Positions 2,382 to 20,082 of a DNA stretch of 64,000 nucleotides are shown piece by piece. The notes below the pieces were generated by a model, which was not told where the DNA came from, did no database searches, and was given only the letters and a program-made list of their open reading frames with translations. Source of the DNA: Dehalococcoidia bacterium (GTDB lineage Bacteria; Chloroflexota; Dehalococcoidia; Plut-88900). The position numbers were made by a program, and so were the translations under genes. The stretch is taken from positions 1 through 64,000 of the forward strand of contig CBDBLV010000003.1 of NCBI GenBank assembly GCA_965207225.1, in the 5' to 3' direction. Position 1 is the stretch's first letter, and the number at the start of each line of letters is the position of its first letter.

Positions 2382-3539
2382 ATGACGACGGCAACCACGA
2401 CGAGGACCAATAGGACCAAGGGCACGGAAACCACGACGGATGCGGCGGCGACCGCCGAGCGCAGGGGCAGGCCGGAGAGCGAGCTCAGGGCGGCGGCCAG
2501 GAAGCGGGGCCTCACCATGAAGGAGCTCGCGGCCCTGATGGGCGTCAGCGCAAGCCACCTCTCCCAGGTCGGCACGGGCAAGAAGCCCTGGACCCCCAGC
2601 CTGCGGGAGAAGGCGATGGCCGTGCTGGGAGAGGTCCCCGGACAGGGCATCGTCTACCGACAGACCCGCGAGGTAGATGCAGAAAGTACCTTCATCCGGG
2701 AGCGCGCACGCGAGATAGGAATCACCATGCTGGAACTGTCCGACCGGTCGGGGGTGAGCTACGGCTACCTGACGCAGGTGGCCCGTGGCCGCAGGAACAT
2801 GGGACCCAAGGTGCAGGCCAGCATCGAGTCGGTCCTGAACGCTCCGGCCAGGGTCGCCCCCGCACAGTGCGCCAACCGCCAGGGTGACGTGATCGAGAGT
2901 GAGGCCAGCAGCTTCATCCGGGAGACCGCCCGGGCCCTCGGACTAACCATGAGGGAGCTGGCCGAGAAGGTGGGAGTGTCCGCCGGGTACTTGTCGCAGG
3001 TGTCACGCGGCCACAGAAACATGGGGGTGAAGCTCCAGGCCAGGGTCGAGGCCGTGCTTGAGGGACGTGCGAAGGTCGAGTCCGCCCAGTGCCCCGACGT
3101 AGACCGGCAGTTCATCTGGGAGCGGATGGAGGAGCTCGACGTCAGCCAGAACGAGGTGGCGCGCCGGGCGGGCATCAGCTCCGGCCACCTCTCCCAGATC
3201 ATGAACGGCCAGCGCAACCCGTCGGCTACGGTACTCAAGAAGCTGCACGGAGCGCTGTTCCAGCGGACGAAGGCCGATGAGCGGGTGATGCCCGCGGCCT
3301 TGAAGGTGCTGGGCTGGAAGAAGGGGGAGCGCAGCGGCATGGTGGTGCACGGCGCTCGCGGTAGAGACGGCACGGCCAGGGGCGGTGCGGTGCGCGTCGG
3401 CGGGCGCGTGCCCTGGGGAGCCGAGGTGGAGTACGCCTTCCGCGCTGGGTACGACGGCGCAGGGAAGGTGTCCGTGGATCACGTGGTGGCGCCGGGCTAC
3501 TCCGCACTGTTGATGCGGCCGGGGGCGGCGACCGCTTAG
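2382..3539 (+). CDS. transcriptional regulator with four tandem XRE-type HTH domains
   Basis: AAAGGAGA RBS; four repeats of the GLTMxELA..GVS.xyLSQV pattern. Confidence 0.85.
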   Translation: MTTATTTRTNRTKGTETTTDAAATAERRGRPESELRAAARKRGLTMKELAALMGVSASHLSQVGTGKKPWTPSLREKAMAVLGEVPGQGIVYRQTREVDAESTFIRERAREIGITMLELSDRSGVSYGYLTQVARGRRNMGPKVQASIESVLNAPARVAPAQCANRQGDVIESEASSFIRETARALGLTMRELAEKVGVSAGYLSQVSRGHRNMGVKLQARVEAVLEGRAKVESAQCPDVDRQFIWERMEELDVSQNEVARRAGISSGHLSQIMNGQRNPSATVLKKLHGALFQRTKADERVMPAALKVLGWKKGERSGMVVHGARGRDGTARGGAVRVGGRVPWGAEVEYAFRAGYDGAGKVSVDHVVAPGYSALLMRPGAATA

Positions 3540-3544
3540 GTACA

Positions 3545-3583
3545 AGAGAGGGAGGCTATCCGAATTGGATGGCCTCCCTCTCT
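3545..3583. terminator. hairpin between convergent genes, probable bidirectional terminator
   Basis: AGAGAGGGAGGCTATCC-gaatt-GGATGGCCTCCCTCTCT 17-bp stem with one G-U pair. Confidence 0.65.
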
Positions 3584-3713
3584 ACCGGCATGTATCCCGC
3601 TCTCTTTGCGTTTCACCAAGTCCGCATCAGCACCGGCGCGTTGGCGTCCAATGGTCGGCAGCCGAACTGCCGCCTTCAGCCCATGGCCCCGTGGGGACGC
3701 CGGCCGGTTGCTT

Positions 3714-6700
3714 CTAGTCAATGATGGTGATGGTGAGCTCGGTGGGCTCCTCGACGGTGTAGCCTGGGCCGTTCAACACCCGGAGGATAACCGTCTCGCC
3801 GCCTTCCCGCTCCTGGTCTCGTATCGGGTCGAACGTGAACCTGGCCCAACGGAGGCCCGCTTCCCTGTCGGAGTCGTGGGGGGACTCAAGGGACCGGACC
3901 GTGAAGGTGTCGCCCACCTTCTCGATCTGACCCTGTATGCGGAACAAGCGGAAGTCCTCGTCCAGGGTCGCCGTTCCGCCGACGTACTGGAAGATCACAT
4001 CCCCCGCGAAGTTCCCGGTCACGTACCACGTCGGGATCCGCGTATGGCCTTCGTAGACTTCAAGTTGTGTCGAGCCCTGCCCGTGGGCATGGGGATGGTC
4101 GCGACTGGCCACCGGGGTGTTCACGTCCGCGTCGTTGTCCACGATGGTCAGCGTGTACTCCGTGGGCTTGTCCTGCGACAGGGAGTACCCCGTGCCGGGC
4201 TCCAGAGTCAGGACGACCACCTCGTCGGCCTCGTTGAGGTTGTCGTCGGTGATGGTCACCGTAATCTCGGTTTCAAGCGTCCCCGCCGGAATCGTAACGC
4301 TGCCGGGAATGGCGCTGTGGTCATCGGTGTTGTCAGAGCCGATATTGGGCGGGAAGCTGACGCTGACGTCCACTGTCACCGGATTGTCCGTCTGCCCGTC
4401 CAGCCTGACCAGCACCACGTGCGTGCCGGCGCCCTCGCCCGGCTCGCCCGAGGCCGTCGTGAAGAATACCTCCGGCGCGTCGTCGTCCAGGATGGTCAGC
4501 TCGTAGATGTTCGCCGACGTATCGAGGGCGTAGCCGTCGCCGCCGGTCAACGTCAGCGTCAGAGTCTCGTCGCCCTCGGCGTCTGAGTCGTTGACGATGG
4601 TTATCGGCACGAAGACCTGGTTCCGCCCGCGCGGGACCGTGACCGTCCCGGAGTTGCTGATGGTGAAGTCGTCGCCCGGGCCGTGCTGGCCGTGCACTCC
4701 CTCCGTGGACGTGCCACCAACGGTGTAGCCGATGGTGAGATCCTCGTGGGGCGCCGGGTCCAGGGTGATGACCGCCCGGTGCGTGCGGCCCGTCTCACTC
4801 ACGCTGGCCTCCGCCGTCTCAAAGGCGACCATAGGCAGGTTGTTGTCCGTGATGGTCAGCGTATGCACGCTTTCTTCGCCCACGTTGTTTCCCGAGCCGA
4901 CCCGCAGCGTCAGCTCCACCGTCTCGTCCGGCTCGCTTTCGCCGTTGTGGATGATCTCCACCAGAATGTCAACACTGGTAGCGCCTTCCGAAACCCGCAT
5001 CGTGTTGGGGACGCGGTAGTCCCGGTTGCGCGTGGCCGTGCTTCTCACGTCATAGCTCAGGGTCAGGCCGCCCGCGGGCGCGGCAGGGCGGAGATTGACC
5101 TGCACGGGGTGCGGGGTGTCCGCCTCGACGACGGTGGATTCAGCGGAGGCAAACTCCGCCCGCGGCCGGTCGTCGTCCAGGATGGTCAGCGTGTGCGTCC
5201 GAGTCGTCCCGACGGTGTAGTCCGAGCCGTTCCCCAGCGTCAGCACCACCGTCTCGTCGCGCTCGGAGTCGCCGTCGGGGTTGATGGTTACCGGGATGCC
5301 GACGCTGGTGATCCCGGCGGAGACCGTCACCGACCCGGAAGAGCCGGTTAAGCCTTCGATGCTGTAGTCAGTGCCCCGCGTGGCCGTGCCGCCGCCAAGG
5401 GTGTAGTTTATGGTCACGTCCTCGGTGGGCGCCGGGACCAGGTTGACGGTGACGCCCACGCTCCCGTCGGACTCGCCAACCTCGCTATCGGCCCGGGCGA
5501 ACTGCGCCCCGGGGCCGTCGTTGTCGGTGATGGTCAGCGTGTAGCGGGACGGAGTTCCCACGTCGTAGTTCTCTCCCGCGCGCAGGTAGATGTCCACCCA
5601 CTCATCATCCTCGCTCGTGCCGTCGTCGCTCAGCCGCACCCGGATGGGAACGCTGCTTTGCCCGGGCCCGACCCAGACCGACCCAAAGCCGTTGCTCAGG
5701 CCGCCGATCGTGAAATCCTCGCCGGCCTCGGCGACGCCCCCGATCTGGTAGTTGATGTTGGTGGCGGCATGGGGCGCCGGAACCAGGTTGACCACCACGT
5801 TGTGCGTGCCGTCCCCCTCGCTCACGGTGGCCGTGGCCGGGTCGTCGGCGAAGAACACCGCGGGATTGTCGTCGTCCCTCACCACGACGCTGGCCGACCG
5901 GGCCGAAGACGCCGTGTAGCCCTCGCCGTTGTTCAGGGTGACGAATACCTCCCCGTCGGCGTCGTCGGTATCGTTCCCCACGGTGAGGACGGTTATGGTG
6001 GCGCGGCCGCTGTTGCCTATGGTTGCATGCTTCTGGCCCAACTCTCTGTCGGCTACGTAGTCGCCACGCTGGATCACCGTGTAGCCAAAGGTGAGACTGT
6101 CTCCGGCGGCGGGGGCCGGGGAGGCGCTGACCGTGAATTGGGCGGCGTCGCCCTCGTCGACTGGATCGCCTCCCTGCACCGACAGCCGCGGCTGGTCCGG
6201 GCTGTCGCCGGTCGCCATCACCGGCCCCGCCCAGTAGCCGGGAACTTTATGAGTATTCACTGCCCGCACGTAGTAGCACGTGAGCTCGCCCTCCTTCGCA
6301 CGGCGGTCCGCGTACGTCGTTCCCGTGAGCCGCTCTCCCGCTTGGTCCGTACTCGGCGCCTGGCAGGCTCCACCATTCGGCCGCTCCGTGAACACCTCGT
6401 AGCGGGACACAGGGAAGCCGTTCACCGACTCAAGCTCGGCCCACCACACGAGGGCGGTCGTGAATGGAACGGTGTAGAACTGCGCTTGCAGGTCCTGTGG
6501 CGTTCCCGGCACTGGCCCGCCGGCTCCGGCCCGGGCAGCGATGTGAGCGCTGTTGTTCTCATCGATGTAGTCGAAGTAGGCGGTGGAGTGGACCGTGCCG
6601 TCGATGGTAACCGAGTAGGGCTCGGTGCTTTCGATGCTGGCCTCAATGCCCGACGTGGACGCGCCGTCCGGGGCGATCAGGGTCAGCGTGGGGAAGGGCA

Positions 6701-8525
6701 TCTTGCCGATGGAGGTCCTGCCAGAGGAAACGGACATCTTTCCGATGGTCCAGGTGGCTTCGCAGAATCCGTCTACGCAGTCGCCCTGCGCGTACCTTCC
6801 ATCGCTGCCGCTGACGTCTTCGTCGTCCACGCGCTTGGTGCTGCCACTGACGATGGCCTCCGCGCCCTGGGGTACGCCTGTGAGGGTTACCCGCACGGCC
6901 CCAGCCGCGTCTGGTCCGTTGTTGGCCGCGAGGATGGTGTAGGCTTGCTGGTCCGGCGCCGCCAGTGGGCTGCGACCGCCGTCCCGCACCGCAAGCTCCG
7001 CTATCGGCCCCACGTGGAAGGTGTAGACGCCGCTGTCGGTGTACGCCGTCCCCGACTTGGTAGCCCCAACGGTTATCTTTACCTTATATGTGCCCAAAGT
7101 GCCGAAAACTACTAATGCGGGAATTGGTTCATTAAGGTTGTACGGTCCCGCGGACAGCATTGTGTCGGCGTCCAAGATGGTAATGTTTCCTTCGTTGCCG
7201 GCCACAACTGTAAATTTGCCGGGCCGTTGTTTTGGCACCACGTCGCTAATTGCAAAAGTGTATGCGTTGTACCCGCTATCAATGACTTCGAAGATGACAC
7301 CAACACCAGGGATCGAAGGAACAGAAGCAAGGTGCCTTGCCGTCTTGCCGGTGCTCCATCCCGCCTCAACCCTTCCCTGGACGTCCCTGACTTGGACAAT
7401 GACATCTTCAGGCTGCCAGAATGCCGCTTCATGCTTTGCCACCAATTCCAGTGTGTCATCGCTGGTGCAGGGGTAAGATGTGCGGCCAACGCAGGAAACG
7501 TACTTGAAAACAGCAATATCGCCCTCGTTCAATATCGGATCTTCGCCCAGGCACTCGGTGGAGAAGTCGTTCACCAGCACCCCCGGGTCCAGCTCGAAGT
7601 CGGGTGTGGAGCTCACCACCGTCGCCGTCAGGCACCGCTGCTCCAAGGGAACGTTATCCGCGGCGAGGAGTACCGGCAAAGACATTGTCGTACCACTATT
7701 TGCGCCACTAATTAACCCCACATTCCAGATACCGCTTTCGGCGTCAAAGGATGTGCCGGTCGGCGCAGTCCATCCGGGAGCTAAAGACAACCCCGGCGAA
7801 AGATCGATCTTGATCTTCACATCCCATACTTTGTCAATCTGCTTGCTTGGTACTATTAGAACTCTTGGGTCTGGGTCAATGTAGGGTACATTAGCCGCAC
7901 GAACATCAAACGTGGTCTGCGTCTGCGTACCTAACGCTGGAACCCTGTTGTTAAGGCTGTGAACTCTTACGCCTACTTCTGCACCTGGCCATGCAAAAAG
8001 ATAAGCATTCGCTTTCCTAATATACCAATCCTCGGTTTCAATACTCCCTTGGCTGCCTGCTTCGCTGGCGAGGTAACGATGTGAAACCAATTCAGCGTGC
8101 AGGCGGACTGGTGTATCCTGATTGAATCGAGGAAAGAATGCTGCGGGCTGAATGATCACGTCAGCGGTGCCCCCCGGCGGTATAAAGGGGATGACCCACT
8201 CTCCAGCGTCCCTGTCAATGTACCCGGCTGAAGGGTTGCTAACAGTTGTGTGCTGCTTGTACTCCTGACCATTGGCCGTGGCGGTAATGCGAACGACTAC
8301 ATCATAAGCCGCCGCCGGTGGGTGACCGGGGACTGGATCGTTGCGCACGAAGAGCTCCCACCAGACATTTGAGGTTCCTCTTGGCTTCGGCAGACTGTCC
8401 AGGGAGATGCTGCTCGCCGGGGGCGAGGGGGCAGCAAAAGCGGGCTCGGCAGCGCTGGTCGCCATCGCGACCAGCGCTGCAAACAGGCACAGCGTTACAA
8501 GCCTAAGGGCCACAGCAACCGCCAT
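3714..8525 (-). CDS. large secreted surface protein with FN3-like and multiple Calx-beta domains
   Basis: signal peptide; repeated TAT.G.DY / I.DD...E.DETV.LTL / LTI.DDD Calx-beta motifs; YYVRAVN FN3-like motif. Confidence 0.85.
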   Translation of the reverse strand: MAVAVALRLVTLCLFAALVAMATSAAEPAFAAPSPPASSISLDSLPKPRGTSNVWWELFVRNDPVPGHPPAAAYDVVVRITATANGQEYKQHTTVSNPSAGYIDRDAGEWVIPFIPPGGTADVIIQPAAFFPRFNQDTPVRLHAELVSHRYLASEAGSQGSIETEDWYIRKANAYLFAWPGAEVGVRVHSLNNRVPALGTQTQTTFDVRAANVPYIDPDPRVLIVPSKQIDKVWDVKIKIDLSPGLSLAPGWTAPTGTSFDAESGIWNVGLISGANSGTTMSLPVLLAADNVPLEQRCLTATVVSSTPDFELDPGVLVNDFSTECLGEDPILNEGDIAVFKYVSCVGRTSYPCTSDDTLELVAKHEAAFWQPEDVIVQVRDVQGRVEAGWSTGKTARHLASVPSIPGVGVIFEVIDSGYNAYTFAISDVVPKQRPGKFTVVAGNEGNITILDADTMLSAGPYNLNEPIPALVVFGTLGTYKVKITVGATKSGTAYTDSGVYTFHVGPIAELAVRDGGRSPLAAPDQQAYTILAANNGPDAAGAVRVTLTGVPQGAEAIVSGSTKRVDDEDVSGSDGRYAQGDCVDGFCEATWTIGKMSVSSGRTSIGKMPFPTLTLIAPDGASTSGIEASIESTEPYSVTIDGTVHSTAYFDYIDENNSAHIAARAGAGGPVPGTPQDLQAQFYTVPFTTALVWWAELESVNGFPVSRYEVFTERPNGGACQAPSTDQAGERLTGTTYADRRAKEGELTCYYVRAVNTHKVPGYWAGPVMATGDSPDQPRLSVQGGDPVDEGDAAQFTVSASPAPAAGDSLTFGYTVIQRGDYVADRELGQKHATIGNSGRATITVLTVGNDTDDADGEVFVTLNNGEGYTASSARSASVVVRDDDNPAVFFADDPATATVSEGDGTHNVVVNLVPAPHAATNINYQIGGVAEAGEDFTIGGLSNGFGSVWVGPGQSSVPIRVRLSDDGTSEDDEWVDIYLRAGENYDVGTPSRYTLTITDNDGPGAQFARADSEVGESDGSVGVTVNLVPAPTEDVTINYTLGGGTATRGTDYSIEGLTGSSGSVTVSAGITSVGIPVTINPDGDSERDETVVLTLGNGSDYTVGTTRTHTLTILDDDRPRAEFASAESTVVEADTPHPVQVNLRPAAPAGGLTLSYDVRSTATRNRDYRVPNTMRVSEGATSVDILVEIIHNGESEPDETVELTLRVGSGNNVGEESVHTLTITDNNLPMVAFETAEASVSETGRTHRAVITLDPAPHEDLTIGYTVGGTSTEGVHGQHGPGDDFTISNSGTVTVPRGRNQVFVPITIVNDSDAEGDETLTLTLTGGDGYALDTSANIYELTILDDDAPEVFFTTASGEPGEGAGTHVVLVRLDGQTDNPVTVDVSVSFPPNIGSDNTDDHSAIPGSVTIPAGTLETEITVTITDDNLNEADEVVVLTLEPGTGYSLSQDKPTEYTLTIVDNDADVNTPVASRDHPHAHGQGSTQLEVYEGHTRIPTWYVTGNFAGDVIFQYVGGTATLDEDFRLFRIQGQIEKVGDTFTVRSLESPHDSDREAGLRWARFTFDPIRDQEREGGETVILRVLNGPGYTVEEPTELTITIID

Positions 8526-8531
8526 CCGATA

Positions 8532-10166
8532 CTACGGGTTGCCCCAGGTGACGGTGACATTCTCGGCGTGAATGACACGTCGGTTCGAGCCATCATCATC
8601 AACGTCGTAAGTGGCACTGAAGGTGAAAGTTTCCGTTAGGGCGCTATTTCGGGTGGTGGTGTACACAATGGCGTTGTTGGTGGTAACCCGCCCAGTGAGG
8701 GTATCGGAATTCGACAGACTGTCGAAATCATACAGATACTCTCCCACTTCTTCGAAGTGTTGGAACACCGCCCTAAAGGTCACCGTGTCACCCACCGCCG
8801 GGCTGGCATTATCGACTGCAAGGCTCACGGTGGGGGCGACGTCGTCCAAACTGATCCGCACCACCAGGGTGTCGTCTACGGTGGGGTCGGGATTGCTCTC
8901 GTGGTCGATCTTGTTTGTCACTCCCAAGGTGAGGTCATAGGTGGCCTTGGTCTCGTAGTCCAGGCTGGCCCCCTCGGCCACCTTGATTTGGACGCCGTAG
9001 GGGTCCGCGTCGGTCGTGGCCGTTGCTACGAAGTTTTCGTGGCCGACGCCGGAGAGGCTGTACCCCAGATCACTCGCTTCCGAGTAGACCAGGAACGGGT
9101 CGCCGACGTTGGTCCCGGCCGGGGAGTTTTCCGGCACACTGCGGCTGACGCCCAATAGTGGCGGCTCCACCTCGACGAGAGTCCCCACTTGGATGACGTA
9201 CTTTTTCACCTCGCCGGCCTCGGTGACGTTTGCACTGATCGCCTTCCAGTTCTCGTCGTAACCCTCGTCAGTAGGTTCCTTAGGATTCTTTTGGCGCACG
9301 TACCCCACGGGTTGAGCAGATATTTCGTAGGTCCCGGGCTTGGTGAAGACCCACTGTAGGTCATTGATGAGTTCGCCGGGCGCCATCTCCATGGATGCGA
9401 TGCCTGCCTCAGCGCTGTCCCAGACCTTGGTCGCGCCGGGCACACCCGACTGGCGCGCCCGGTAGGCGAGGAGGTGGGGATGCTCGCTCGGGGCAATGCC
9501 GGGGTTGCGCAAGAGCCTGAACTCGTAGCTAATCTTGGTCCAGTACTTCTTGTCGAATCGGTGCGTCGAGAATCCGAGGGTGAGGTCGGATTTCTGGTTC
9601 CCGCTGAGGTCCGGGTCGTCCAGCCGCAGCCACCAGACCTTTTCACCAACATTGGCGTGGTCACGAACCCCTGGGTACTGGTCCAAACGCAAATGGTGGG
9701 TGCTGAAATCATCCGGATTGCCCTCCACCACAGTCGCCTGACGCGAGTTCTCGACGTGGATTATGAGCTCGTCGATGTCGACGCCGGAGTCGGTCAGGGT
9801 GGTTACGGTTTGGAGGTCTTGCGTTTCGGTGGTCAACAGCGGCGGGCACTCGTTGGTGTGCAGGATGCCGGTGTTGTCAGGGGTTTGGTCAGGGTCCAGC
9901 CCTGGGGTCTGCGCCTGATCCGGCCCCGTATCCTCCCAGTAGGCGTCAAAGAGTGCGTAGTGGCCGGTGGTCTTCTCGTGCGGTTCGGCCTGGAATGCAG
10001 TGGATGCGCCTTGGCCGAACCCACAAGGCTGCGGGTCGTCGTAGGTGTTGTCCGGGCTTTGCGCCGAGGTGGGGGTGACCAACAGGGCGGCCACCGCTAC
10101 TAGGGCCAGCGCCAAGACGACGCCGAAGAGTTTCAGGGGCATTGATGCGTTGGTAAAGCTGTTCAT
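8532..10166 (-). CDS. secreted protein with choice-of-anchor M-like and cadherin-like domains
   Basis: signal peptide; WVFTKPGTYEI motif; VPENSPAGTNVG...LDYETKATYDLTL cadherin motif. Confidence 0.75.
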   Translation of the reverse strand: MNSFTNASMPLKLFGVVLALALVAVAALLVTPTSAQSPDNTYDDPQPCGFGQGASTAFQAEPHEKTTGHYALFDAYWEDTGPDQAQTPGLDPDQTPDNTGILHTNECPPLLTTETQDLQTVTTLTDSGVDIDELIIHVENSRQATVVEGNPDDFSTHHLRLDQYPGVRDHANVGEKVWWLRLDDPDLSGNQKSDLTLGFSTHRFDKKYWTKISYEFRLLRNPGIAPSEHPHLLAYRARQSGVPGATKVWDSAEAGIASMEMAPGELINDLQWVFTKPGTYEISAQPVGYVRQKNPKEPTDEGYDENWKAISANVTEAGEVKKYVIQVGTLVEVEPPLLGVSRSVPENSPAGTNVGDPFLVYSEASDLGYSLSGVGHENFVATATTDADPYGVQIKVAEGASLDYETKATYDLTLGVTNKIDHESNPDPTVDDTLVVRISLDDVAPTVSLAVDNASPAVGDTVTFRAVFQHFEEVGEYLYDFDSLSNSDTLTGRVTTNNAIVYTTTRNSALTETFTFSATYDVDDDGSNRRVIHAENVTVTWGNP

Positions 10167-10659
10167 CGATTCTCCTAGCTTCCTTGCTTTCGAAATCTAG
10201 ATCGAGTTGGTTCGTTGTTCTTTGCCTCGCGCCCAAGACGGGTGCGTGTTTCTACACTGGTTTTGCTCCGTGCGGGACGACTGATATCACAATCGTCAGC
10301 TATCGTTTCCGCCATCGTGTTGAGTCTTAGTATCATTGTTCCCTGTCGTCGCCAACCGTGGAGTACGTTCGGATCATTGGTATTGAGCTTCGTATGCGTC
10401 CAATTGACGAGGTACGGTCTCGACACGGACAGTGGGCAAGGCCACCATTACGTTGATAATTGAGATATAGTATCATTACTATCCACCTATTACCTTAAAC
10501 CACCGAAACGGATGTTGTCAATAGCGCCGACCAAGAAAAGGCAGCGTTTCCATTGATGATCAGCAGCCATCAGGAGTATGATGAGGGCAGAACGGTCTTG
10601 AGCACACATAGGACGCTGAGAGTTGCCCGAAGGCCGTAGCCATGTCAGAGGGGAGCGTC

Positions 10660-10926
10660 ATGATTGCGAACGTGAAGGCCAAGTACTCCAACGGCGTTCT
10701 CACGCCCCTGGAGCCCTTGGACATTGCCGAGGGAGCGGAAGTGGCCCTGGTGATTGAGGAGATTCCCGTTCAAGCCGCGGCGAAGGGCGCGAATGCTATC
10801 GGAGACATGTCAATGTTGGCCAGGCACCTCATTGAGAAGTACCCGGATGACGGACGAGACCGACCCACCGATGGCTCTGTCAACTACAAACACTACATGT
10901 ACGGTCATCCGAAGAAGGAACCGTAA
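10660..10926 (+). CDS. antitoxin, AF2212/DUF104-like
   Basis: KAKYSNGVLTPLEPLDIAEG motif; stop/start overlap with PIN toxin. Confidence 0.8.
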   Translation: MIANVKAKYSNGVLTPLEPLDIAEGAEVALVIEEIPVQAAAKGANAIGDMSMLARHLIEKYPDDGRDRPTDGSVNYKHYMYGHPKKEP

Positions 10927-11348
10927 TGCGTGTGGTGTTCGCTGACAGTGGATATTGGATCGCACTACTCGACAACCGAGACGACCTTCACGCCCGCGCA
11001 CTCGACTTGAGCTCAGAATCCATCGCGGACCAACTGGTCACGACCCATATGGTTGTGGTCGAGGTACTCAATTTCGCATCGACCCGTGGCGAGTACATGC
11101 GACAGCGTGCAACTGAATGGGCGAAGAGTCTTCGTGGCAGACCAAGCATTGAGGTTGTCTGGCTTACTGAGGACCAGTTTTGGACAGCGGTGGGACGATA
11201 CGAGGCACGCCAGGATCAGACCTGGAGCCTAACGGACTGCGCGAGCTTCCTCATAATGGAAGAACGTGACCTGACTGAGGCGCTCGCCTACGACCGAGAC
11301 TTTGAGCAGGCTGGATTCGTCGCCCTGCTGAGAGGCAGTCACGAGTGA
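10926..11348 (+). CDS. vapC: PIN-domain (VapC-family) toxin
   Basis: VFADSGYWIAL...SLTDCASF...ALAYDRDFEQAGF. Confidence 0.88.
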   Translation: MRVVFADSGYWIALLDNRDDLHARALDLSSESIADQLVTTHMVVVEVLNFASTRGEYMRQRATEWAKSLRGRPSIEVVWLTEDQFWTAVGRYEARQDQTWSLTDCASFLIMEERDLTEALAYDRDFEQAGFVALLRGSHE

Positions 11349-11492
11349 CGCAAAATGCTGGGATTGTGAATGCGTGCGCCCCATTGAATATGCTGGAAGC
11401 CACGATAGGCGCAACGCTGGTAGGCAGCCCAAGAGAGACCACGCAACATCGTTTCGGTGGGTTTACAGACTGCCCAGCCTCAATTCGAAGAC

Positions 11493-11544
11493 GGTTCTGT
11501 CTACCGTCAAAATAGGCCCACCAGACTTGATAAAATCAAGAACC
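11493..11544. other. hybrid serine-recombinase att site A (left junction of element 1a)
   Basis: GGTTCTGTCTACCGTCAA-aata-GGCCCACCAGACTTGA-TAAAATCAAGAACC; shares a 16-bp core with 24842-24857 and has reciprocal arms. Confidence 0.9.
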
Positions 11545-11902
11545 TTCCGGTTGGCCTTGGTGCTGGACCTGTAGGGGCAATCCTACGGGCGAACCGCCTT
11601 GGGGAAGGCACGTCTCAGTGATGGGCGCACCCCGAGCCCTCTACGCGTGCTCGCTATTCTATGGTTGCCCTTCTCCATCCGGTAGCCGGTGCGAGGCTCG
11701 CTCAACAGGTAAGTGAGGTCCGTCTATTCCTAGTCGGGGCAGAGAGTGCCGAAGAGGGCCGGTACATCTCAGACGGCCACCACTCCACCGACCAGTCGCT
11801 TCACGGCAACTTGGTGACCCTTGCCTGTCAATGTCTTGACTTTTGTAGCAGACTGCATCACACTGTCGCACAGTTGCTACATATTGATGCGAGTGTCTTG
11901 AA

Positions 11903-12109
11903 TTGGCCAGAAAGCGACGAACGGTTTCCTATCCCGAAGGGGTTACTCCTGACCTCGAAGAGTTGCTGAACCGACTTCGCGAGTGCAGGGACGGCCCATA
12001 CTGGAACAGAAGCCTGAGTGACATCGGCGGAATGGTCCTGCTGAAAGGAGCTCAGTCGGAGCTAGAAAAATACAGTAACCAGGATCAACAAGGGGGGGCG
12101 GAGTCATGA
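11903..12109 (+). CDS. small hypothetical protein, possible regulator
   Basis: TTG start; ATGA overlap with the downstream methylase. Confidence 0.45.
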   Translation: MARKRRTVSYPEGVTPDLEELLNRLRECRDGPYWNRSLSDIGGMVLLKGAQSELEKYSNQDQQGGAES

Positions 12110-14631
12110 CCCTGACTCATGACCAGGTGCTGGAACACCTAAAGCACGAGTTCCATGGTCTCGGTTATGTCGGCGGACTCCTGCAAGAAGACTATGCATT
12201 CGCTGATGTCCTAGCCTCCCACTATGCGGTAAAACGCATCCCACTCGCAGCATTCGTTCAAGAACCTCCCTCCTACCGAACCGCCTCGTTCGGCGTGGCC
12301 GTAGCCAACGGACGGTCTGGAATCGACTCCATCCTTGACCATCGCTCCTTGGGCGCTCCGCAGATTCTTGAGATCAACGACGACCGAGTGCTCAGGTGGA
12401 AGGTCACAGGAAAGGGTAGGCCTATACTCTTGGATGAAGTAGGTGTGGATAGGCTCCATGGCTTCTTCAGCCAGCACCGTGATGATTGGTCACCCCAGCA
12501 AGTTCTGCGGGCCAAGTCCGCAGGGCCTGTGGCTACGCAACTCGACTTCCTTGACCTAGACTTAATGCCGCTTCTTGACTACGAGGTGCGTACCAAGCTT
12601 GATGTGCTCTTACGCGACACTGTAGCTTTGGCACGTAGGACATTCCAGAGAAACTTGCCGTTCACAGAAAAGCACTATCCTCCGCTGTTCCGTCTGATCT
12701 TCAGACTGATTGCCGCTAAAGTGCTAGCAGATCGTCGCTATCAAGGGGACTGGGATTTGGCTGATCCCACATCTGCGATAGAGGCTGTGGAGAACTTGTA
12801 CTTCGGGGACGCAGCTCTGGAACCCGTTCTTCAGGATTATGAAACGCAACTTGCCGTTTGGCAGCGTATCAAGGAGACCTTCCATTTCCAAAACCTTTCG
12901 GTCGATTCTCTTGCCTACGTCTATGAGAATACTCTGGTAACCCAAGAGACTAGAAAACTGTTTGGAATACATAGTACTCCACCAGAAATCGCCGAGTACA
13001 TTGTCAGAAGACTTCCGTTCGACAGCTTGGAGACCCATGAGCGCCGCGTCTTTGAACCCTTCTCTGGTCACTCAGTGTTTCTGGTGGCCGCGATGCAACG
13101 AATGCGTGAACTTCTGCCCGGAGAGATGAACTCTCGCCAGCGACACGATTACTTTGTTGACATGCTCTCTGGGATCGAGATAGACGACTTTGCCAGAGAA
13201 GTCGCCAAGCTGTCTCTCATGCTAGCCGACTATCCCAATCCCGACGGGTGGAGGCTGTATGGTGGAGATGCTCTGAGGTCTCCACTATTTGAGCAAGAAT
13301 TGGCGAAGGCCAACATCGTCCTATGCAACCCACCGTTTGAGATGTTCAGTGAGGATGAAAGAGGTCGTTACGACAATCTGTTCTCAGTACGGAAGCCAGC
13401 GGAAATCCTAAGTCGTGTGCTTCAGAACCCCCCCGAACTCTTAGGTTTCGTCCTCCCACGAGTATTCCTGAAGGGGCTGGGATACAGGAAGCTCCGGTCT
13501 CAGCTTGGGAATACTTACGCCTCTGTCGAGCTACTGGCCTTGCCAGAGCGTGTCTTCAAACGCTCGCGCGCCGAGACCGTGTTGTTGCTCTCCTATGGGC
13601 GTGGCCAGGGGACCGTGCGCCTAAAGGCAGGGGAGGTATATGAAGGAGACCACAAGGGCTTCTACTCTATTCAACCGTCGTACGAATTCGAAGAACACGT
13701 AGAAGACGCAGGGAAGGTGTTTGGCCATGGCATGTGGCGCCCGCCTCTTCACGATGTCTGGCGTGCGACGGCCAACTTGAAGCGCTTGAGCGACATTTCC
13801 TCCGTTCATCGTGGCATCGAATATAACCTACCCTTCGGGGGAAACGAATCACAACTAGTATCCGATAGGGACTCGCCCGGTTTTGTACCGGGAGTCCACA
13901 GGGTAAGGGGCACGGTAGAGCCATTTGCCGTTCTCAATACCGTTTTCCTCAACGCTTCCGTTGACTTCATGCGTGGGTCCGCTTACACGCTTCCTTGGGA
14001 CAAACCGAAGCTCATTGTAAACGCTAGTCGTCAGTCCGTAGGACATTGGAAGATTACGGCTTCATTGGACAATGGAGGTCTCGTCTGTTATCAGAACTTT
14101 CATGGAGTTTGGCCGAACGACGGCACTCCTTTGGAAGTCCTGGCTGCCGTGCTCAATGGCCCTGTTGCTAACGCATTTGTGAGCACCCATGGAACTGGTC
14201 GGCATGTTACAGTTCAGTCCTTGAAGGGCATCCCAGTCCCCGAGTTTGGCCATACACAGCAGCAGCACATATCGTCACTAGTCAAGCAATACTTGAATGC
14301 CCGTAGCCTTTGGCTGACTGAAGGGGTCGGTGCAGATGAAGCGCGCCAGCTTTGCACGTGGCTCCTGAAGTCGATAGACGCCGAAGTACTAAGGGCCTAC
14401 GATCTATCACCTCGCATAGAGCGTATGCTGTTGGATTACTTCGCCGGGCATTCCCGCCTTGGACCTGTCGAGTTCACGGAGTACTATCCTCGAGGCTTCG
14501 GTCCATACATTCCGTGGCACATTTACATTTCAGAGGAATTCAAGGAGGCCCAAGCCAAGAATACTCTGGACCGACTTCCCGTCATTCCAGCATCGACTAT
14601 TATCAATGAAGCCCTTTCCTATGTGGAATAG
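12106..14631 (+). CDS. N6-adenine DNA methyltransferase domain protein (RM-like, with TRD-like C-terminus)
   Basis: GIHSTPPEIA, FEPFSGHS (motif I), CNPPF (motif IV). Confidence 0.85.
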   Translation: MTLTHDQVLEHLKHEFHGLGYVGGLLQEDYAFADVLASHYAVKRIPLAAFVQEPPSYRTASFGVAVANGRSGIDSILDHRSLGAPQILEINDDRVLRWKVTGKGRPILLDEVGVDRLHGFFSQHRDDWSPQQVLRAKSAGPVATQLDFLDLDLMPLLDYEVRTKLDVLLRDTVALARRTFQRNLPFTEKHYPPLFRLIFRLIAAKVLADRRYQGDWDLADPTSAIEAVENLYFGDAALEPVLQDYETQLAVWQRIKETFHFQNLSVDSLAYVYENTLVTQETRKLFGIHSTPPEIAEYIVRRLPFDSLETHERRVFEPFSGHSVFLVAAMQRMRELLPGEMNSRQRHDYFVDMLSGIEIDDFAREVAKLSLMLADYPNPDGWRLYGGDALRSPLFEQELAKANIVLCNPPFEMFSEDERGRYDNLFSVRKPAEILSRVLQNPPELLGFVLPRVFLKGLGYRKLRSQLGNTYASVELLALPERVFKRSRAETVLLLSYGRGQGTVRLKAGEVYEGDHKGFYSIQPSYEFEEHVEDAGKVFGHGMWRPPLHDVWRATANLKRLSDISSVHRGIEYNLPFGGNESQLVSDRDSPGFVPGVHRVRGTVEPFAVLNTVFLNASVDFMRGSAYTLPWDKPKLIVNASRQSVGHWKITASLDNGGLVCYQNFHGVWPNDGTPLEVLAAVLNGPVANAFVSTHGTGRHVTVQSLKGIPVPEFGHTQQQHISSLVKQYLNARSLWLTEGVGADEARQLCTWLLKSIDAEVLRAYDLSPRIERMLLDYFAGHSRLGPVEFTEYYPRGFGPYIPWHIYISEEFKEAQAKNTLDRLPVIPASTIINEALSYVE

Positions 14632-14644
14632 AAGTTGATGGCTC

Positions 14645-15154
14645 ATGACAACGGAAGGCTATCTCTTAGATACAAACATCGCCAGTTGGGCCTGCCACGA
14701 GGGTAGTAAACCTCATGCCAGAGTAAGGGCAAGGGTGGATGGCCTCGGAGATGATGTAGCGTTCATTTCAGCAGTTTCCTTAGCTGAAGTTGAATATGGT
14801 CTCAATCTTGTCCCCTCAGGCGTGCAAGAGCCAGCTAACTTCGGGCGTGCAATGGATATGTATCAGGTTCTGCCTATTGATCGCCATACGGCAGAAATCT
14901 ACGGCAGCATACGAGCCGACCTCTTTAGGGCATACGCACCTAGAGACCGCCGGAACAGATTCGCCTCCCGTTACGTTGAGGATCTGCGCGAGCGCACTTC
15001 AGGTAAGGAACTTGGTATTCAAGAGAATGACCTGTGGATCGTGAGCGTTGCCGTCGAGTACAACTTGATATTCGTTACCGGAGATCGTGGCGGTGGCATG
15101 AAGAAGATCGTTGAGGTAGCAAACTACGCTCATCGGACACAGTATTGGAGCTAG
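14645..15154 (+). CDS. PIN-domain ribonuclease
   Basis: YLLDTNI...SAVSLAEVEYG...ENDLWI...FVTGD. Confidence 0.85.
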   Translation: MTTEGYLLDTNIASWACHEGSKPHARVRARVDGLGDDVAFISAVSLAEVEYGLNLVPSGVQEPANFGRAMDMYQVLPIDRHTAEIYGSIRADLFRAYAPRDRRNRFASRYVEDLRERTSGKELGIQENDLWIVSVAVEYNLIFVTGDRGGGMKKIVEVANYAHRTQYWS

Positions 15155-15236
15155 GTTGTATGAGTGCATTACCTAACCAAGCAGGCTTAGGGTTTACTGG
15201 CCATTCGAACACAGGCCGACAGGGTTCATAGAGCAA

Positions 15237-18125
15237 ATGCCACGACAGACAGAACCGAACGCGAACAACGCACTAGGCGACTTGCTACGAGGCATGATGC
15301 CGGGCTGTGAGGTCCGCTCTGAGAACACCCAGACTTTCCCTGACTATCCAGGCCGCCATGCCGACGTGCTGATTGCCGCTCCTGGCCGCTCCCCTGTAGT
15401 AGTCGAAGCCGAATATGAGCCGGCCGCTGAAGTGGAGAGGGATGCGTCCGAACGCTTGGGGCTTCGCGTGCAGGGACAACCCCGAACGGTCGAAGCCGCT
15501 ATAGCCGTGCGCTACCCGAAGGTTGTAGAGGATGCCTATGATGTGCGCCAGACCCTCTCCGAAGCTCGTCTCTCGTACTACGTCCTGCATCAAGACGGCA
15601 GTCGGTTTCCTGAATCGGGGTGGCTAGAAGGTTCAGCGACCGACTTGGCTGACCTAGCCCGTCTGGTGTCTGTCCCGCAGAAAGCGGTGGAGCAGGCGGC
15701 TGACACGCTTGAGCGCGGCATTGGCCAGGCCGCCAACCGCTTGGAGGAAATGGCTAAGCTGCGCCCTAACGTCACGCCAGTTATTGCCCGGTTGTTGGGA
15801 ATGAGCGACGTTCCCCAGACCCGTCGCATGGCCTGCGCCATTATCGCCAACGCCATGGTCTTCCACCAGCGCATCGCAGGGATACATGAGGGTGTGAAGC
15901 TTCTGCGCTTGGTGTGCGGTCCCAATGTCGCAAACCCGCAGGGTGAAACGCTAACGGCCTGGGAAGACATCCTGAAGATCAACTACTGGCCCATCTTTGC
16001 AATTGCCAAAGACATCTTGGAGCAGCTTCCTGGAGACGCTGCCACCGACATCTTGCGGGAGTTGCTGGAGACCGCTCAGGAGGTTGAATCCACCGGCGTC
16101 GACAACGCCCACGACTTGACCGGACGCATCTTCCAACGGCTTATCGCCGACCGGAAGTATCTTGCTACCTTCTACACCCTGCCAGCGTCAGCTGCGCTCT
16201 TGGCCAGACTCGCCGTAGCGAAGATGGATGGCGTGGACTGGTCCGACGCCGAGGCCATCGGCAGGCTGCGCATCGGGGATTTCGCCTGCGGCACCGGTGC
16301 TCTGTTGTCGGCGGTATATGAGCAAGTTGCTTCCCGCCACGAGCGCGCCGGGGGTGACTCCACAGCCCTGCATCCAGTGATGATGGAGGAAATCTTGTAT
16401 GGCTGCGACGTCATGCCCTCGGCCATTCACATCACCGGCTCCACCTTGTCCGGTATGCGGCCCAACGTGGGATTCAAGCAGTCCCGCCTCTACACCCTAC
16501 CGTATGGTGAGTTGGGGGACGGCAGCGTCTCCATCGGCTCCTTGGAACTGTTGATTTCAGATTCTCAGTTGACACTAGCAAATTTCAGCGATCCTGCCCT
16601 GCGCACAGGAAGCGTTGGAGAAGAGACTGCGGCTCAGGTCACCCTCGACATTCCCCATGGAGGATTTGACCTTGTGATCATGAATCCGCCGTTCACTCGA
16701 AACACTACGAATGAAGGTGAACACGCTGGTGAGTTCAATTCTGCCTTCGCTGCCTTCGATACGACCGACGAAACTCAGAGGGCAATGAGTAAGCGAATGG
16801 CCATCCTCAAGAAGGGCACGTGTTACCACGGCAATGCTGGTTTGGCATCGGCCTTCGCAGCGTTAGGTGACAAGAAGCTTAAGCCCGGCGGTGTATTGGC
16901 CTTGGTTCTGCCACTTTCAACTGCGTCTGGGCTGTCGTGGAAGGAATTCCGAAAGATGTTGGCGACCGACTACACTGATTTGACGGTCTTGAGCCTCGCG
17001 GCCAATGGCAGGGAGATGTCTTTCTCATCGGATACGGGAATGGGGGAATGCCTGATAGTCGCTCGAAAGCGCATAAAGGATGACCCGGCACGCGGCGCGC
17101 AGTTTGTGTCTCTTCGACATCGACCCAAGGGGTTCGCACAAGCCAGCACTATGGCAATTAGCATCACGCATCATGATAGTGTGAGGCAGATCGAAGACGG
17201 GCCTTATGGAGGGGCACACCTTCTCGTAGGGGGCGACACGGTTGGTGAAACGCTGACAGCCCGGCCGTCAACAGGCGGAGATAGTTGGGGCGGAGTCCGC
17301 GTTCTAGACTACTCTCTAGCCCAAACTGCCTACGCCCTCTTGAGCTCTAACTTATGGCTTCCTTCGAAGAAGCCACTGAAGCTGAATATGACCTTGCTCG
17401 GTAAGATGAGCAGGATCGGGCTGCATCATCGAGACATTACAGGCCCAACCCCAAGAGGCCCCTTTACGAAGGCTGCACCTAGTCCGACTGCCACCTATCC
17501 GTCCCTGTGGAATCACGATGCTAAGGAAGAAACCAGGATCGTGTGCTCACCCGATGCTCAGTTACTGGTAAAGACTGGGATGGAGGACAAAGCAGACAGG
17601 CTTTGGGCAGTCGCCAGTCGGACACACCTAAATGCAGAGTTTACATTTGGGTCTCAGCCTCTTGCTGTTGCCTTCACAGAGTTCAGGACCATGGGAGGAA
17701 GGGTATGGCCCAATGTGAAGCTCGCTGATCAGCGGTTCGACTACGCTTTCGCCGTGTGGGGCAATAGTACGATGGGCCTATTGTCGTACTGGTGGCACAC
17801 AAGCCGGCAACAGTCTAGCAAGGCTACTACTTCATTGGGCTCCGCGGAGATGTTGCCCGTGCTCGATTTCCGCGCCTTGAGCGATGCGCAGCTGGTGATG
17901 GCGGAGACGATATTCGACGAGTTCAGGGGCAAGGAGTTGAAGCCTGCCTACCTTGCCGACGCTGACCCTAACCGCGCGTTGCTGGACAGGCGCGTGATCT
18001 GCGGCCTCTTGGGCTTCGACGAGGAAGTGTACAAGGCAGTTCGGAGGCTGTCGGCCAAGTGGTGCGCCGAGCCGTCCGTTCACGGTGGGAAGGCACGCCC
18101 AAAGACTGCCAAGCTCGTCATCTAG
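15237..18125 (+). CDS. type IIG-like restriction-modification fusion (nuclease + N6 methyltransferase + specificity region)
   Basis: N-terminal HADVLI...VVVEAE nuclease-like motif; TFYT, DFACGTG, MNPPF. Confidence 0.8.
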   Translation: MPRQTEPNANNALGDLLRGMMPGCEVRSENTQTFPDYPGRHADVLIAAPGRSPVVVEAEYEPAAEVERDASERLGLRVQGQPRTVEAAIAVRYPKVVEDAYDVRQTLSEARLSYYVLHQDGSRFPESGWLEGSATDLADLARLVSVPQKAVEQAADTLERGIGQAANRLEEMAKLRPNVTPVIARLLGMSDVPQTRRMACAIIANAMVFHQRIAGIHEGVKLLRLVCGPNVANPQGETLTAWEDILKINYWPIFAIAKDILEQLPGDAATDILRELLETAQEVESTGVDNAHDLTGRIFQRLIADRKYLATFYTLPASAALLARLAVAKMDGVDWSDAEAIGRLRIGDFACGTGALLSAVYEQVASRHERAGGDSTALHPVMMEEILYGCDVMPSAIHITGSTLSGMRPNVGFKQSRLYTLPYGELGDGSVSIGSLELLISDSQLTLANFSDPALRTGSVGEETAAQVTLDIPHGGFDLVIMNPPFTRNTTNEGEHAGEFNSAFAAFDTTDETQRAMSKRMAILKKGTCYHGNAGLASAFAALGDKKLKPGGVLALVLPLSTASGLSWKEFRKMLATDYTDLTVLSLAANGREMSFSSDTGMGECLIVARKRIKDDPARGAQFVSLRHRPKGFAQASTMAISITHHDSVRQIEDGPYGGAHLLVGGDTVGETLTARPSTGGDSWGGVRVLDYSLAQTAYALLSSNLWLPSKKPLKLNMTLLGKMSRIGLHHRDITGPTPRGPFTKAAPSPTATYPSLWNHDAKEETRIVCSPDAQLLVKTGMEDKADRLWAVASRTHLNAEFTFGSQPLAVAFTEFRTMGGRVWPNVKLADQRFDYAFAVWGNSTMGLLSYWWHTSRQQSSKATTSLGSAEMLPVLDFRALSDAQLVMAETIFDEFRGKELKPAYLADADPNRALLDRRVICGLLGFDEEVYKAVRRLSAKWCAEPSVHGGKARPKTAKLVI

Positions 18126-18222
18126 TCGCAGCGCCTGCGCTGAATCCAGAGAGCACGTTTCCTATCCCCGGTGTGCCACGTGACGATTGCCCATCGGGTC
18201 ACTCAATCGCTACCCTCGTGCT

Positions 18223-18555
18223 ATGGCGATCTCAGACCTACAACTACTCGACACCCTCAGCAGAACGCCCTTCGTCGATTCAACGGAGCTGGCGGGCATC
18301 CTGGGCGAGCCCCACGCGACCGTGCACCGCAGGCTGTCCGAGTTGCTGGATGACGGCATCGTGGGGCGCATCACCCACGGCACCGTCCACCTGCCGTCGA
18401 GCGGAAGGTATTGCCTGACGACGAAGGGCATCAGCGAGGACGCCGACTTTCTAGACTTCGACACGCCCTCGGACTTCGTGCGGGCCTACCCCATGTCGAG
18501 GGAGTGGCTGACGCTGCTCCTGCGCCGGATGGACACCGTTTACCACCTGTCTTGA
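18223..18555 (+). pseudogene. truncated replication-relaxation protein (N-terminal fragment)
   Basis: closely matches the first ~105 aa of 52571-54301 (PFVDSTELA...DFVRAYPMSREWL...RRMD), then stops. Confidence 0.85.
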
Positions 18556-18559
18556 TTCT

Positions 18560-18848
18560 CCGCTTCCGACTCCTTCACTTGTTCTTCGAGAGCCATGACT
18601 TTCTCCGTTATGTCACCGGCGTCATCGTCCTGCACATCCCCGGCGTCAACGCCCACGGCCCGACACTCCTCCAACGCCCTTCGCATCCGCCAGAGACGCG
18701 ACTAGACTCTCGACAGGCCACCACCATGACGCCGCTTCATCCCCAGAGCCTCTGTCACGGTCCGATAGGGGCTGTCCAATAGGAGCCTTCACGCCGTCGC
18801 CGGAATCCCTACGCCTACCTCCATGACAGGCTCATCGCGGTCAACCAC
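18560..18848 (-). pseudogene. decayed paralog of HTH/coiled-coil protein 31437-32306
   Basis: reverse complement aligns by eye with 31437-31750 (e.g. GCGGATGCGAAGGGCGTTGGAGGAG vs GCGGATGCGGAAGGCGTTGGCGGAG); no intact ORF; left end approximate. Confidence 0.6.
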
Positions 18849-20059
18849 GTGGGTCGTCATGCCTCAGAAAGTACAATTCCTACAATACAATCACTACAAT
18901 GAAGTTGCGATGGAGCCGCAGTAAAACTGCTCCCTGGATTCCCTTCGCTTCGCCCTGATTTCCCTTCATTCAGCTACGAATGTCAACCAGATTGTATTCT
19001 GCAATGCACTTCAATCCTCCCTACTGCCCTCCCACTGCGATAACATCCTCTGAGCGATTGTAGTCTGACGCATCAGCCCCCTGAACACCGGCACAGTGAA
19101 TTCCCGGCTGTTGACGTTCTCCCTGAGGATGCTCGACTCCCCATCGCTTGCTCCCGCCATGTTCATCACAGAGCACCGCCGACATCGCGAACGCCAGCCC
19201 TCTCCACGATGTCGTGTCTGGCGGTCGCCCGGTGTCAGTGCTCTCAGCCGGTGATGAGCCTGACACTGGCTTTCCGTCTTTGACGCTCGGCCTCTCCCTT
19301 CACTTCGCCCGCGAGGTCACTCACGGCGTCCTGCATCACGAGGTCGTGCTGATGACTGCGAATAACCGGGAGGCCGTCGCCGCGTTCTACGCATCACCAC
19401 CGACACGCTCGCATGGATACTTCCGCCGCCGTATTCCTTCGACAGCCCCGCGATGGCCCTGATGCATCAGGCACAACAATGTCCACAGTTTCCGTTCCGA
19501 GCACTTCCATTAGGAGCTCTCCCAGCAGCCTTGCTGGGACAACTTGCAGACGCGACCGGTCACGCATCTCCCCTTCCGCCCACAAATGTACAATCCGTTG
19601 CAGAACCGACCGGTCAGGGGTGGTCAGCATCGTCGCTCATGCCTCTCACCCTCCAGCTACGGCCAAAGCTACGCAGCCCTGTCCGAAACCCTCACCCAAC
19701 GGAGACGCAGGCCCTCGCAACTTGCCGCCAACTTGTCGCCGAAACCGTTCCCAGGGCTTCCTATAGGGCGGAAAAGGGCATTCCCTCTACTCACCGTGTC
19801 GGCCCCCAACAGCTCCCAAAAGTACATTTCGTTGCAGAACCGGCGGGATGACGGAGACCTCGCCGATCACGTCCTCCCCGACCTGTTCGACGCTATCGAC
19901 AGGCTGACGTGTCACCATGTAACGACCGGGACCAGGGATTCGTCATCGTCTTCAGGGAGACGAAAACGCGCTCCAACACGCCGGTCTGCTCGACGTCACG
20001 CACCCCCGCCTCAAGCGCCTCTTTTGCCCTGTTTTGTCATCGGAGGGCCACCACGACGC

Positions 20060-20082
20060 CGCGTCATGCACCCCCACCTCAA
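20060..20082. promoter_or_regulatory. conserved 23-bp non-coding backbone motif, candidate oriT/nic site
   Basis: CGCGTCATGCACCCCCACCTCAA, identical at 63853-63875 and 20/23 in reverse at 54684-54706. Confidence 0.45.

Follow-up and report, generated by a model that had tools for sequence, protein, structure and literature searches.

The window, a stretch of 64,000 nucleotides that makes up positions 1 to 64,000 of contig C3 in a 4.03-Mb, five-contig assembly, carries two convergent pairs of recombinase genes and three att joints built on one 16-nt core, here called sites A, B and B2, together with two short reading frames (tail1 and tail2) that issue from site A in opposite directions.

23261–24943, + strand: Int1a, large serine recombinase with Resolvase, Recombinase and Zn_ribbon_recom domains
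24496–26505, − strand: Int2a, large serine recombinase with the same three Pfam domains
57337–59073, + strand: Int1b, second Int1-type recombinase (Pfam), convergent with Int2b
58626–60557, − strand: Int2b, second Int2-type recombinase (Pfam)
11492–11545, unstranded: site A, tail-to-tail att joint of 54 bp (beta arm, core, alpha′ arm)
24819–24872, unstranded: site B, body-to-body att joint of 54 bp (alpha arm, core, beta′ arm)
58949–59002, unstranded: site B2, second body-to-body joint (alpha arm, core with one mismatch, beta′ arm)
11515–11574, + strand: tail1, detached 3′ end of Int1a, with 13 genome copies that share a common stop codon
11463–11522, − strand: tail2, detached 3′ end of the recombinase gene of a left-hand element (E2x), a sequence that closes an intact ORF elsewhere

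All four genes encode large serine recombinases (LSRs) and not tyrosine integrases: PF00239, PF07508 and PF13408 match every one of them (E 1e-11 to 1e-33), and the Pfam comparison found only serine-recombinase domains and no tyrosine recombinase fold of the SSV1 type, a correction to the original prediction, which had named SSV1-type tyrosine integrases as an analog. In an AlphaFold2 model of a 91%-identical copy, the zinc ribbon is followed by a long coiled-coil insert (helices 364–412 and 417–448) predicted with block-mean pLDDT values of about 80–94, and chains 9dxh and 9dxd of the phage integrase SPbeta SprA match at E about 2e-6. The listed GTG start of Int2a (region 26427–26505) yields 669 aa, against 643 aa for Int2b and most homologs, and the true start probably lies about 26 codons inside the listed one. 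Int2a adjoins genes for a Replic_Relax protein and a TrwB/TraG-like (coupling-protein-like) ATPase, and Int1a adjoins YaaC-like and HTH genes (all by Pfam). At the second pair, a 626-nt inverted repeat (54604–55229 against 63330–63955, 83% complementary) lies inside two paralogous ORFs without a Pfam match, at 54581–55558 (−) and 62989–63990 (+); since these ORFs flank the Int1b/Int2b pair on both sides, a gene located close to the recombinase end seems to be common to the two element types.

Sites A and B and the reading frames across them

Int1a and Int2a converge and overlap, and the overlap contains site B. As the original prediction had it, each gene reads on into the antisense strand of the other: the Int1a product carries 28 aa encoded antisense to Int2a beyond ...VLDFVQSGPPDL, and the Int2a product carries 114 aa encoded antisense to Int1a beyond ...VLSTVKSGGP. 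Site B reads alpha arm CGGTTCTTGATTTCGTC, spacer, core GGCCCACCAGACTTGA and beta′ arm CGGTAGACAGAACCG, with its dyad centered at C24845/C24846. Site A has its beta arm at 11493–11508, the core GGCCCACCAGACTTGA at 11515–11530 and its alpha′ arm at 11531–11544, with the dyad centered at C11518/C11519. The center of the 54-bp dyad is the CC in GGC[CC]ACCA, and the protein sequence that spans it depends on gene type: Int1-type genes encode SGPP across CCACCA on the sense strand, and Int2-type genes encode SGGP across its antisense strand.

Exact copies of the 16-nt core GGCCCACCAGACTTGA lie at 11515 and 24842, and a further copy, at 58972, has one mismatch. We rejected the number of cores within the window as sole evidence, because at up to three mismatches there are 3 sites against 0.91 expected, a count that 8 of 100 shuffles reach and that is not significant; the weight of the core comes instead from the arms, which form a 53-nt inverted repeat (77% complementary) and a 39-nt direct repeat, and from the recurrence of the same joints genome-wide. 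The cores at A, B and B2 share one and the same orientation, and inverted recombination sites of the kind used by shufflons and by Gin- or Pin-type systems were not found among them. Between A and B the arms are exchanged and inverted around the same-orientation core, with beta on the left and alpha′ on the right at A, and from this arrangement the two sites appear to stand to each other as attL to attR. An inversion between A and B as a way of giving Int1a the tail2 end was considered and rejected, given that the cores are direct; in addition, a join at the palindromic GGCC, when worked out from the sequences, would read ...SGLF-stop.

The observation made in the sequence of site A is confirmed, and the coordinates agree with the frames that had been proposed. 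On the + strand, tail1 reads GPPDLIKSRTFRLALVLDL with its stop at 11572–11574; it is in frame with Int1a ((24842 − 23261) mod 3 = 0), its stop at 11572 lying 57 nt past the core G at 11515. On the − strand, tail2 reads GGPILTVDRTVFELRLGSL with its stop at 11465–11463 and is in frame with Int2a ((26505 − 24849) mod 3 = 0; 11522 − 11465 = 57). A single crossover between A and B would indeed alter both genes, placing conserved-type tails on Int1a and Int2a at once. The distance from GGTTC to the CCA end is 31 nt in all arms at A and B and 25 nt in tRNAs. Serine integrases have shorter attB half-sites and longer attP half-sites, and the two spacings, 25 nt in the tRNA and 31 nt in the alpha and beta arms, would fit these half-site lengths. 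By the rules that we take to govern phage LSRs, a direct reaction of A with B would presumably not be a standard attL × attR pair.

A stack of integrative elements

Beyond the recombinase genes, the window can be divided into elements and remnants of att sites:

1–11523, − strand: E2x, right-hand 11.5 kb of an Int2-type element, ending with VapBC-like genes (10642–11348) and tail2
11524–24850, + strand: E1a, 13.3 kb, running from tail1 on the left to the Int1a body on the right (Pfam)
24851–41976, − strand: E2a, with the Int2a body, the Replic_Relax protein, the coupling-protein-like ATPase and a 2839-aa repeat protein (Pfam)
41977–42023, + strand: site C, alpha′ arm and tail1 copy (..IKSRTFAISFKLEV, stop) joined to the truncated E2a
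46148–46211, + strand: site D, decayed core, alpha′ arm with a 1-nt insertion, and tail1 copy
47680–47725, + strand: site E, decayed tail1 copy (FILCFKLEL, stop) with degenerate arms

The recombinase body of E2x lies beyond the contig start, and no tRNA anchor was seen for the window's own stack, the contig beginning inside E2x. Copies of E2x are found at C5 2014937–2003423 (98.8% identity), C4 720514–709009 (96.8%) and C5 378140–379132 (100%); in all of them the match breaks off exactly at ...GGCCCACCA (11523), and to the right of that point the neighbors differ from copy to copy. By this comparison, tail2 at site A is part of the left-hand element E2x and not Int2a's own. The left 5 kb of E1a are 94.7% identical to an Int1-type element starting at C2 152073, and this match, together with the end of E2x identity at 11523, argues that 11524–24850 is one element. 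E1a carries MmeI-like and Eco57I-like methylase genes along with PIN, HTH and YaaC-like genes; those at 12106–18125 (an 841-aa N6_Mtase/MmeI-like gene, a PIN gene and a 962-aa Eco57I-like methylase gene) look like restriction-type defense cargo.

E2a is truncated at its right end and is collinear up to there with a tRNA-Val element at C5 1036581–1053975. Comparison of window 41880–42040 with C5 1053880–1054330 shows a deletion of ~300 nt at 41976/41977 in which most of the att core was lost together with E2a's own tail2 and the end of the 2839-aa repeat-protein gene; site C is what remains, a deletion derivative of an A-type joint. The final three core bases, TGA, now serve as the stop codon of the 2839-aa ORF. 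Very large repeat proteins recur in several genome copies; the window has two as cargo of Int2-type elements, a 1603-aa repeat protein with Calx-beta domains (3714–8525, −) and the 2839-aa protein with 327-nt tandem repeats (33460–41979, +).

The pairing of tail1 with Int1a can be read from a genome of the same genus, G008, in which tRNA-Val(tac) ends ...CCACCA and is followed directly by the alpha′ arm and tail1 (DLTKSRTFTLTLVLDL, stop), with an Int1-type gene ~24 kb downstream of tail1 whose alpha arm adjoins unique DNA (L027). This stretch (G008 630.9–656.8 kb) is a solitary element of the same type with a plain attL and attR; since tRNA-Val(tac) and tail1 bound it on one side and the Int1 body on the other, tail1 is identified as Int1a's own missing end. 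Of the proposal that site A stores the missing ends of both integrases, the part concerning Int1a therefore stands, and the part concerning Int2a falls, since tail2 at A is that of E2x and Int2a's own was deleted. Contigs from two sequencing runs (X8 and X10) have ends at 11516 in which the T-arm and acceptor end of a tRNA, both well formed, stand directly in front of the core upstream of tail1, a hint that tRNA/tail1 (alpha′) joints, of which the assembly has none, exist in the source sample.

The assembly contains 13 Int1-type ORFs and 20 Int2-type or related ORFs of at least 400 aa. A census in which this genome was searched for core and arms, and the real sites were sorted into joint classes, gave:

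alpha-body to beta′-body: 7 joints, all convergent gene pairs
beta-tail to alpha′-tail: at least 7 joints, at C3 11515 and 67930, C4 709017 and 821832, C5 1054262 and 1973009, and C2 152064 (the last with a recombinase body on its left side)
tRNA 3′ end to beta′-body: 5 joints
third arm type (gamma) to alpha′-tail: 3 joints
beta-tail or alpha-body to unique DNA: a further class

Convergent pairs account for 7 of the 13 close Int2-type genes (5 more lie beside tRNAs) and for 7 of 13 Int1-type genes. The five tRNA joints end real genes, checked with ARAGORN (Ile-gat, Ala-tgc, Lys-ctt, Val-gac and Met-cat), and two more distant LSRs overlap tRNA-Gln and tRNA-Val(tac), so that 7 of the 49 tRNA genes are used in total; the tmRNA gene at C1 198772–199125 has no LSR of the family beside it. 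In comparisons of the joints, tRNA-specific bases end just left of CCACCA and spacer variants (TTTTTGA/GACTTGA) begin just right of it, and this switch of bases at CCACCA would place the crossover within it, at the dyad center. For Int2-type genes next to tRNAs, the tail lies at the opposite end of the same element (C2 75328 and 88235 are an example), and none of these genes in this genome has a stored tail nearby; an Int2-type element also occurs on its own, at C2 75328–88235. A full stack spans 78 kb on C5 (1911994–1990340) in the order tRNA-Met, E2, E3 (a third type), E1, E2, E1. Site A is thus one of at least seven such joints in the genome, an ordinary tail-to-tail joint of two stacked elements and not the dedicated store or switch that had been proposed for it. 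Counting this genome, the recombinase family was found in 13 of the 41 related genomes searched.

A and B are very probably the recombination joints of integrative elements that LSRs mobilize and that lie stacked head to tail. In tRNA genes, the CCA at the 3′ end is where the family inserts, and attP lies within the last ~20 codons of each element's own recombinase gene. Because attP is inside the recombinase 3′ end, integration cuts off the last 14–17 codons and sends body and tail to opposite ends of the element. Two lineages share the same core in opposite gene orientation, and their alternate stacking produces body-to-body or tail-to-tail joints: at site B, two bodies meet as convergent genes that each read the other's antisense strand, and at site A, tail1 of Int1a meets tail2 of the left-hand element, the body of which is off the contig. 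Were the 13.3-kb element between A and B to excise, Int1a would regain tail1 on the resulting circle, and in the chromosome the neighbor's tail2 would be fused to Int2a. The crossover would fall at the central CC of GGC[CC]ACCA, and new elements would enter at the tRNA-proximal joint, with the tRNA arm as the constant half-site and the downstream DNA as the right half; this model of tRNA-proximal insertion accounts for the sequence in which all joints of the tRNA-Met stack occur. Full-length enzyme would be made from the circle only, and the native tail would plausibly matter only for the enzyme of the circular form. A more ambitious reading of the tail is speculative and, in our estimate, rather doubtful: this conserved amphipathic peptide could be a built-in state sensor, such that (i) the full-length enzyme, made only from the circle, is integration-competent or is short-lived by virtue of its hydrophobic C-terminus, (ii) the enzyme of the integrated form, lacking a tail or bearing a wrong one, differs in direction or stability, dispensing with a separate RDF, and (iii) excision from a stack re-arms the recombinase of the neighbor, giving elements control over one another's mobility.

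Coding status of the tails and alternative readings

Tail1 has 13 copies in the genome (the filter kept 15 rows, 2 of them spurious), all of which end at the same stop codon and follow the pattern F-x-L-x-[FLI]-x-L-x-[LV]. At five alternating codons, all 12 of its distinct sequences have T at position 2, while positions 1 and 3 vary. Tail2 has 17 copies with the pattern ..[DG]RT[VI]FE[LM][WR][LM]G.. (19 rows kept, 2 spurious), one of them with an internal stop. These patterns indicate that the tails are under protein-level selection and conserved as coding sequence. Where a body lies beside a neighbor's tail, the ORF closes normally, as at three loci: L041 (C5 379072–380708) is an intact 545-aa recombinase ORF closed by the exact 60 nt of the site-A tail2, L042 (540 aa) joins an Int1-type body to a tail2-type end, and L040 is a 398-aa ORF that ends in an intact tail1 (C2 150927–152123; L040 928–2124). 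The L040 ORF has no catalytic resolvase domain, and it shares the start MREA[AS]SRGFW with the homologs P0277, P0284, P0308, P0324, P0355 and P0359; ORFs with this start could be truncated copies or could reflect starts chosen by the gene caller.

Selection on the tails, and the conserved-type ends that one A × B crossover would place in frame on both genes, would also suit a regulated switch, in which A stores alternative C-termini and the regulated reaction of A with B sets both recombinases to a new activity, stability or directionality, perhaps in place of an RDF; the same idea was raised for the recombinase DsiB by McMurdie et al. 2011 (PMC3146451). We consider such a switch unlikely. Stacking explains the A- and B-type joints, which occur many times with varying neighbors; tail2 at A belongs to the left-hand element; and tRNA-adjacent Int2-type genes do without a nearby stored tail. 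Structure prediction by AlphaFold2 gives the tail no support either. The model of a 540-aa Int1-type copy whose end is of the tail2 type (106-sequence alignment) has a mean pLDDT of 82.3, residues 505–530 and 532–537 falling below 50 and a helix at 530–539 lying almost entirely in this low-confidence stretch, and the 398-aa copy that ends in tail1 (101-sequence alignment) was modeled with a mean of 89.8 and its last ~28 residues near 50. Across both models the bodies are well folded, and the att-encoded stretch and tail have pLDDT values of 26–50, with no sign of the β-sheet completion that had been suggested for the tail; in these monomer models, beyond whose reach lie contacts in the DNA-bound tetramer, the tail behaves like a flexible C-terminal peptide. 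Logan contigs from four runs of one sample (X7–X10), compared over 10800–25600, contain neither a joint of 24850 to 11524 nor a skip across E1a, a comparison that is uninformative for rare excision forms, as contigs drop them. Six further runs contain small shares of the stretch (0.07–0.16).

Database homologs bear on a second alternative, namely that Int1- and Int2-type units travel together as a composite element whose attP is the tail-to-tail joint, so that the convergent genes are the native state and the tails are never used. Among the 120 best homologs of Int1a, 73 end in an antisense-of-partner tail, 24 have a tail2-type end, 4 start like tail1 and then diverge, 8 have antisense-tRNA-like ends and 11 have others; for Int2a, the 120 best comprise 77 that run into an Int1-type partner, 21 that run into an antisense tRNA, 2 with a tail2-type end, 19 with others and 1 without the anchor. 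Convergent pairs therefore dominate both lists, and by coordinates they also occur in four other genomes (G001, G004, G008 and G011), as a composite element would have it; however, the lists are biased to the convergent layout, which is over-scored because the queries themselves carried antisense tails. Counts within the genome itself are free of this bias and give only 7 of 13 convergent genes for each type, with 5 Int2-type genes beside tRNAs; solitary elements of both types exist (C2 75328–88235 and G008 630.9–656.8 kb); and tails that are never used would not be expected to keep a fixed stop and a periodicity of xTx codons. All this makes a composite element decidedly improbable. The F-x-L-x-F-K-L-E-V form of tail1 is present in none of the 120 best database homologs of Int1a, a point against the stacking model that we favor. 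Distant representatives (30–56% identity) often have antisense-tRNA ends such as ..GWTRTN..SRMLHH, and a few of them (P0277, P0313, P0343 and P0356) have native-type tails; by source name, one homolog comes from a Dehalococcoidia MAG and others from Chloroflexi.

It is scarcely credible that the tails are a by-product of the dyad, an opposite-strand reading of palindromic arms without coding meaning, for although the inverted arms dictate the first 5–7 tail residues (IKSRT.., LTVDRT..) and an open run of 14–19 codons is not rare by chance, the 8–9 codons past the arm lie outside the dyad and still keep a fixed stop and an alternating hydrophobic pattern, the 12 distinct sequences differ beyond the arm by synonymous and conservative changes, and tail2-type ends close intact genes here and in 24 of the 120 best database homologs.

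Relation to known systems

Stacking of elements with attP in the recombinase gene has partial parallels in several systems. In archaeal tyrosine integrases of the SSV1 type, attP lies inside the ORF, tRNA genes are the targets and the gene is whole only on the circle. The elements described here would share all three traits, but SSV1-type genes encode a tyrosine fold and are divided into two large parts, whereas here a serine recombinase loses no more than its last 14–17 codons and keeps all Pfam domains. In mycobacteriophage BPs, attP lies in the 3′ end of the repressor gene, the tail is a degradation tag and the integrase is of the tyrosine type; there, as would be the case here, integration into the 3′ end of a gene alters the C-terminus of its protein, but the affected gene is the repressor and not, as in our elements, the serine recombinase itself. 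Large serine integrases of phages (Bxb1, phiC31 and SPbeta SprA) have attP outside the integrase ORF and a separate RDF that sets direction. Ours have the same domain order, with the long coiled-coil insert (helices 364–448 in the model), and similarly short, dyad-symmetric att sites with an apparently asymmetric center, but attP lies inside the recombinase 3′ end, and no RDF was identified. Finally, tandem accretion at tRNA genes, in which repeated insertion builds arrays of unlike elements separated by att repeats, resembles our stacks in the repeated use of one tRNA end; most described cases that we know of involve tyrosine integrases and intact genes, whereas each joint here also recombines the ends of recombinase ORFs.

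For serine recombinases, full-text literature searches found the layout described only by McMurdie et al. 2011 (BMC Genomics 12:287; PMC3146451), for the ssrA islands of Dehalococcoides and their 540-aa serine recombinase DsiB. According to that paper, these islands lie in tandem downstream of the tRNA-like 3′ end, and their integration module has six genes (DsiB, DsiA, RecF-like, ParB, Mom and an embedded tRNA). DsiB is on the reverse strand beside attL, its 3′ end overlapping the att repeat and its stop lying outside the island, and its authors suggested that it is perhaps complete, or fully functional, only on the circle or by virtue of a 3′ fragment supplied by a neighbor (PMC3146451). The available part of a 2026 Dehalogenimonas paper (PMC13390414) mentions ssrA islands and not the tails. 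As far as these descriptions go, the DsiB islands and the elements described here have in common a recombinase 3′ end laid over the att repeat, with its stop outside the island, and a tandem stacking of islands. They differ in target, ssrA (tmRNA) there and ordinary tRNA genes here (7 of 49); in neighboring genes, DsiA, RecF, ParB and Mom there and Replic_Relax with ATPase or YaaC-like with HTH genes here, where small ORFs were partly scanned; in the presence here of a second (Int1-type) lineage with the core on the sense strand, which gives rise to the convergent pairs and tail-to-tail joints; and in the tails, which here are conserved coding sequence.

Related arrangements occur elsewhere in the class. 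In one class-mate (G025), a 541-aa LSR overlaps the 3′ end of tmRNA by 68 nt, a DsiB-type layout, and Int2a is 32% identical over residues 32–349 (E 3e-21) to this tmRNA-side LSR. In another genome, a 473-aa serine recombinase with 25% identity to Int2a (L047, G037:C1:1196510–1200598) overlaps tRNA-Asn by 42 nt, and from this overlap the placement of a recombinase gene across its att site seems to be general in the class. The layout at the locus is an ordinary consequence of a design already in print, extended here to tRNA targets and to two gene orientations.

For annotation in this bacterial class, convergent overlapping recombinase genes mark the joints of stacked islands, as do short orphan ORF ends beside a CCACCA core, and the true end of a recombinase gene is to be sought at the other end of its element. 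If the tail is functional, a serine recombinase would sense its own integration state through its reading frame, and stacked elements could switch each other's recombinases; if true, both would bear on the control of direction without an RDF and on the design of integrase tools.
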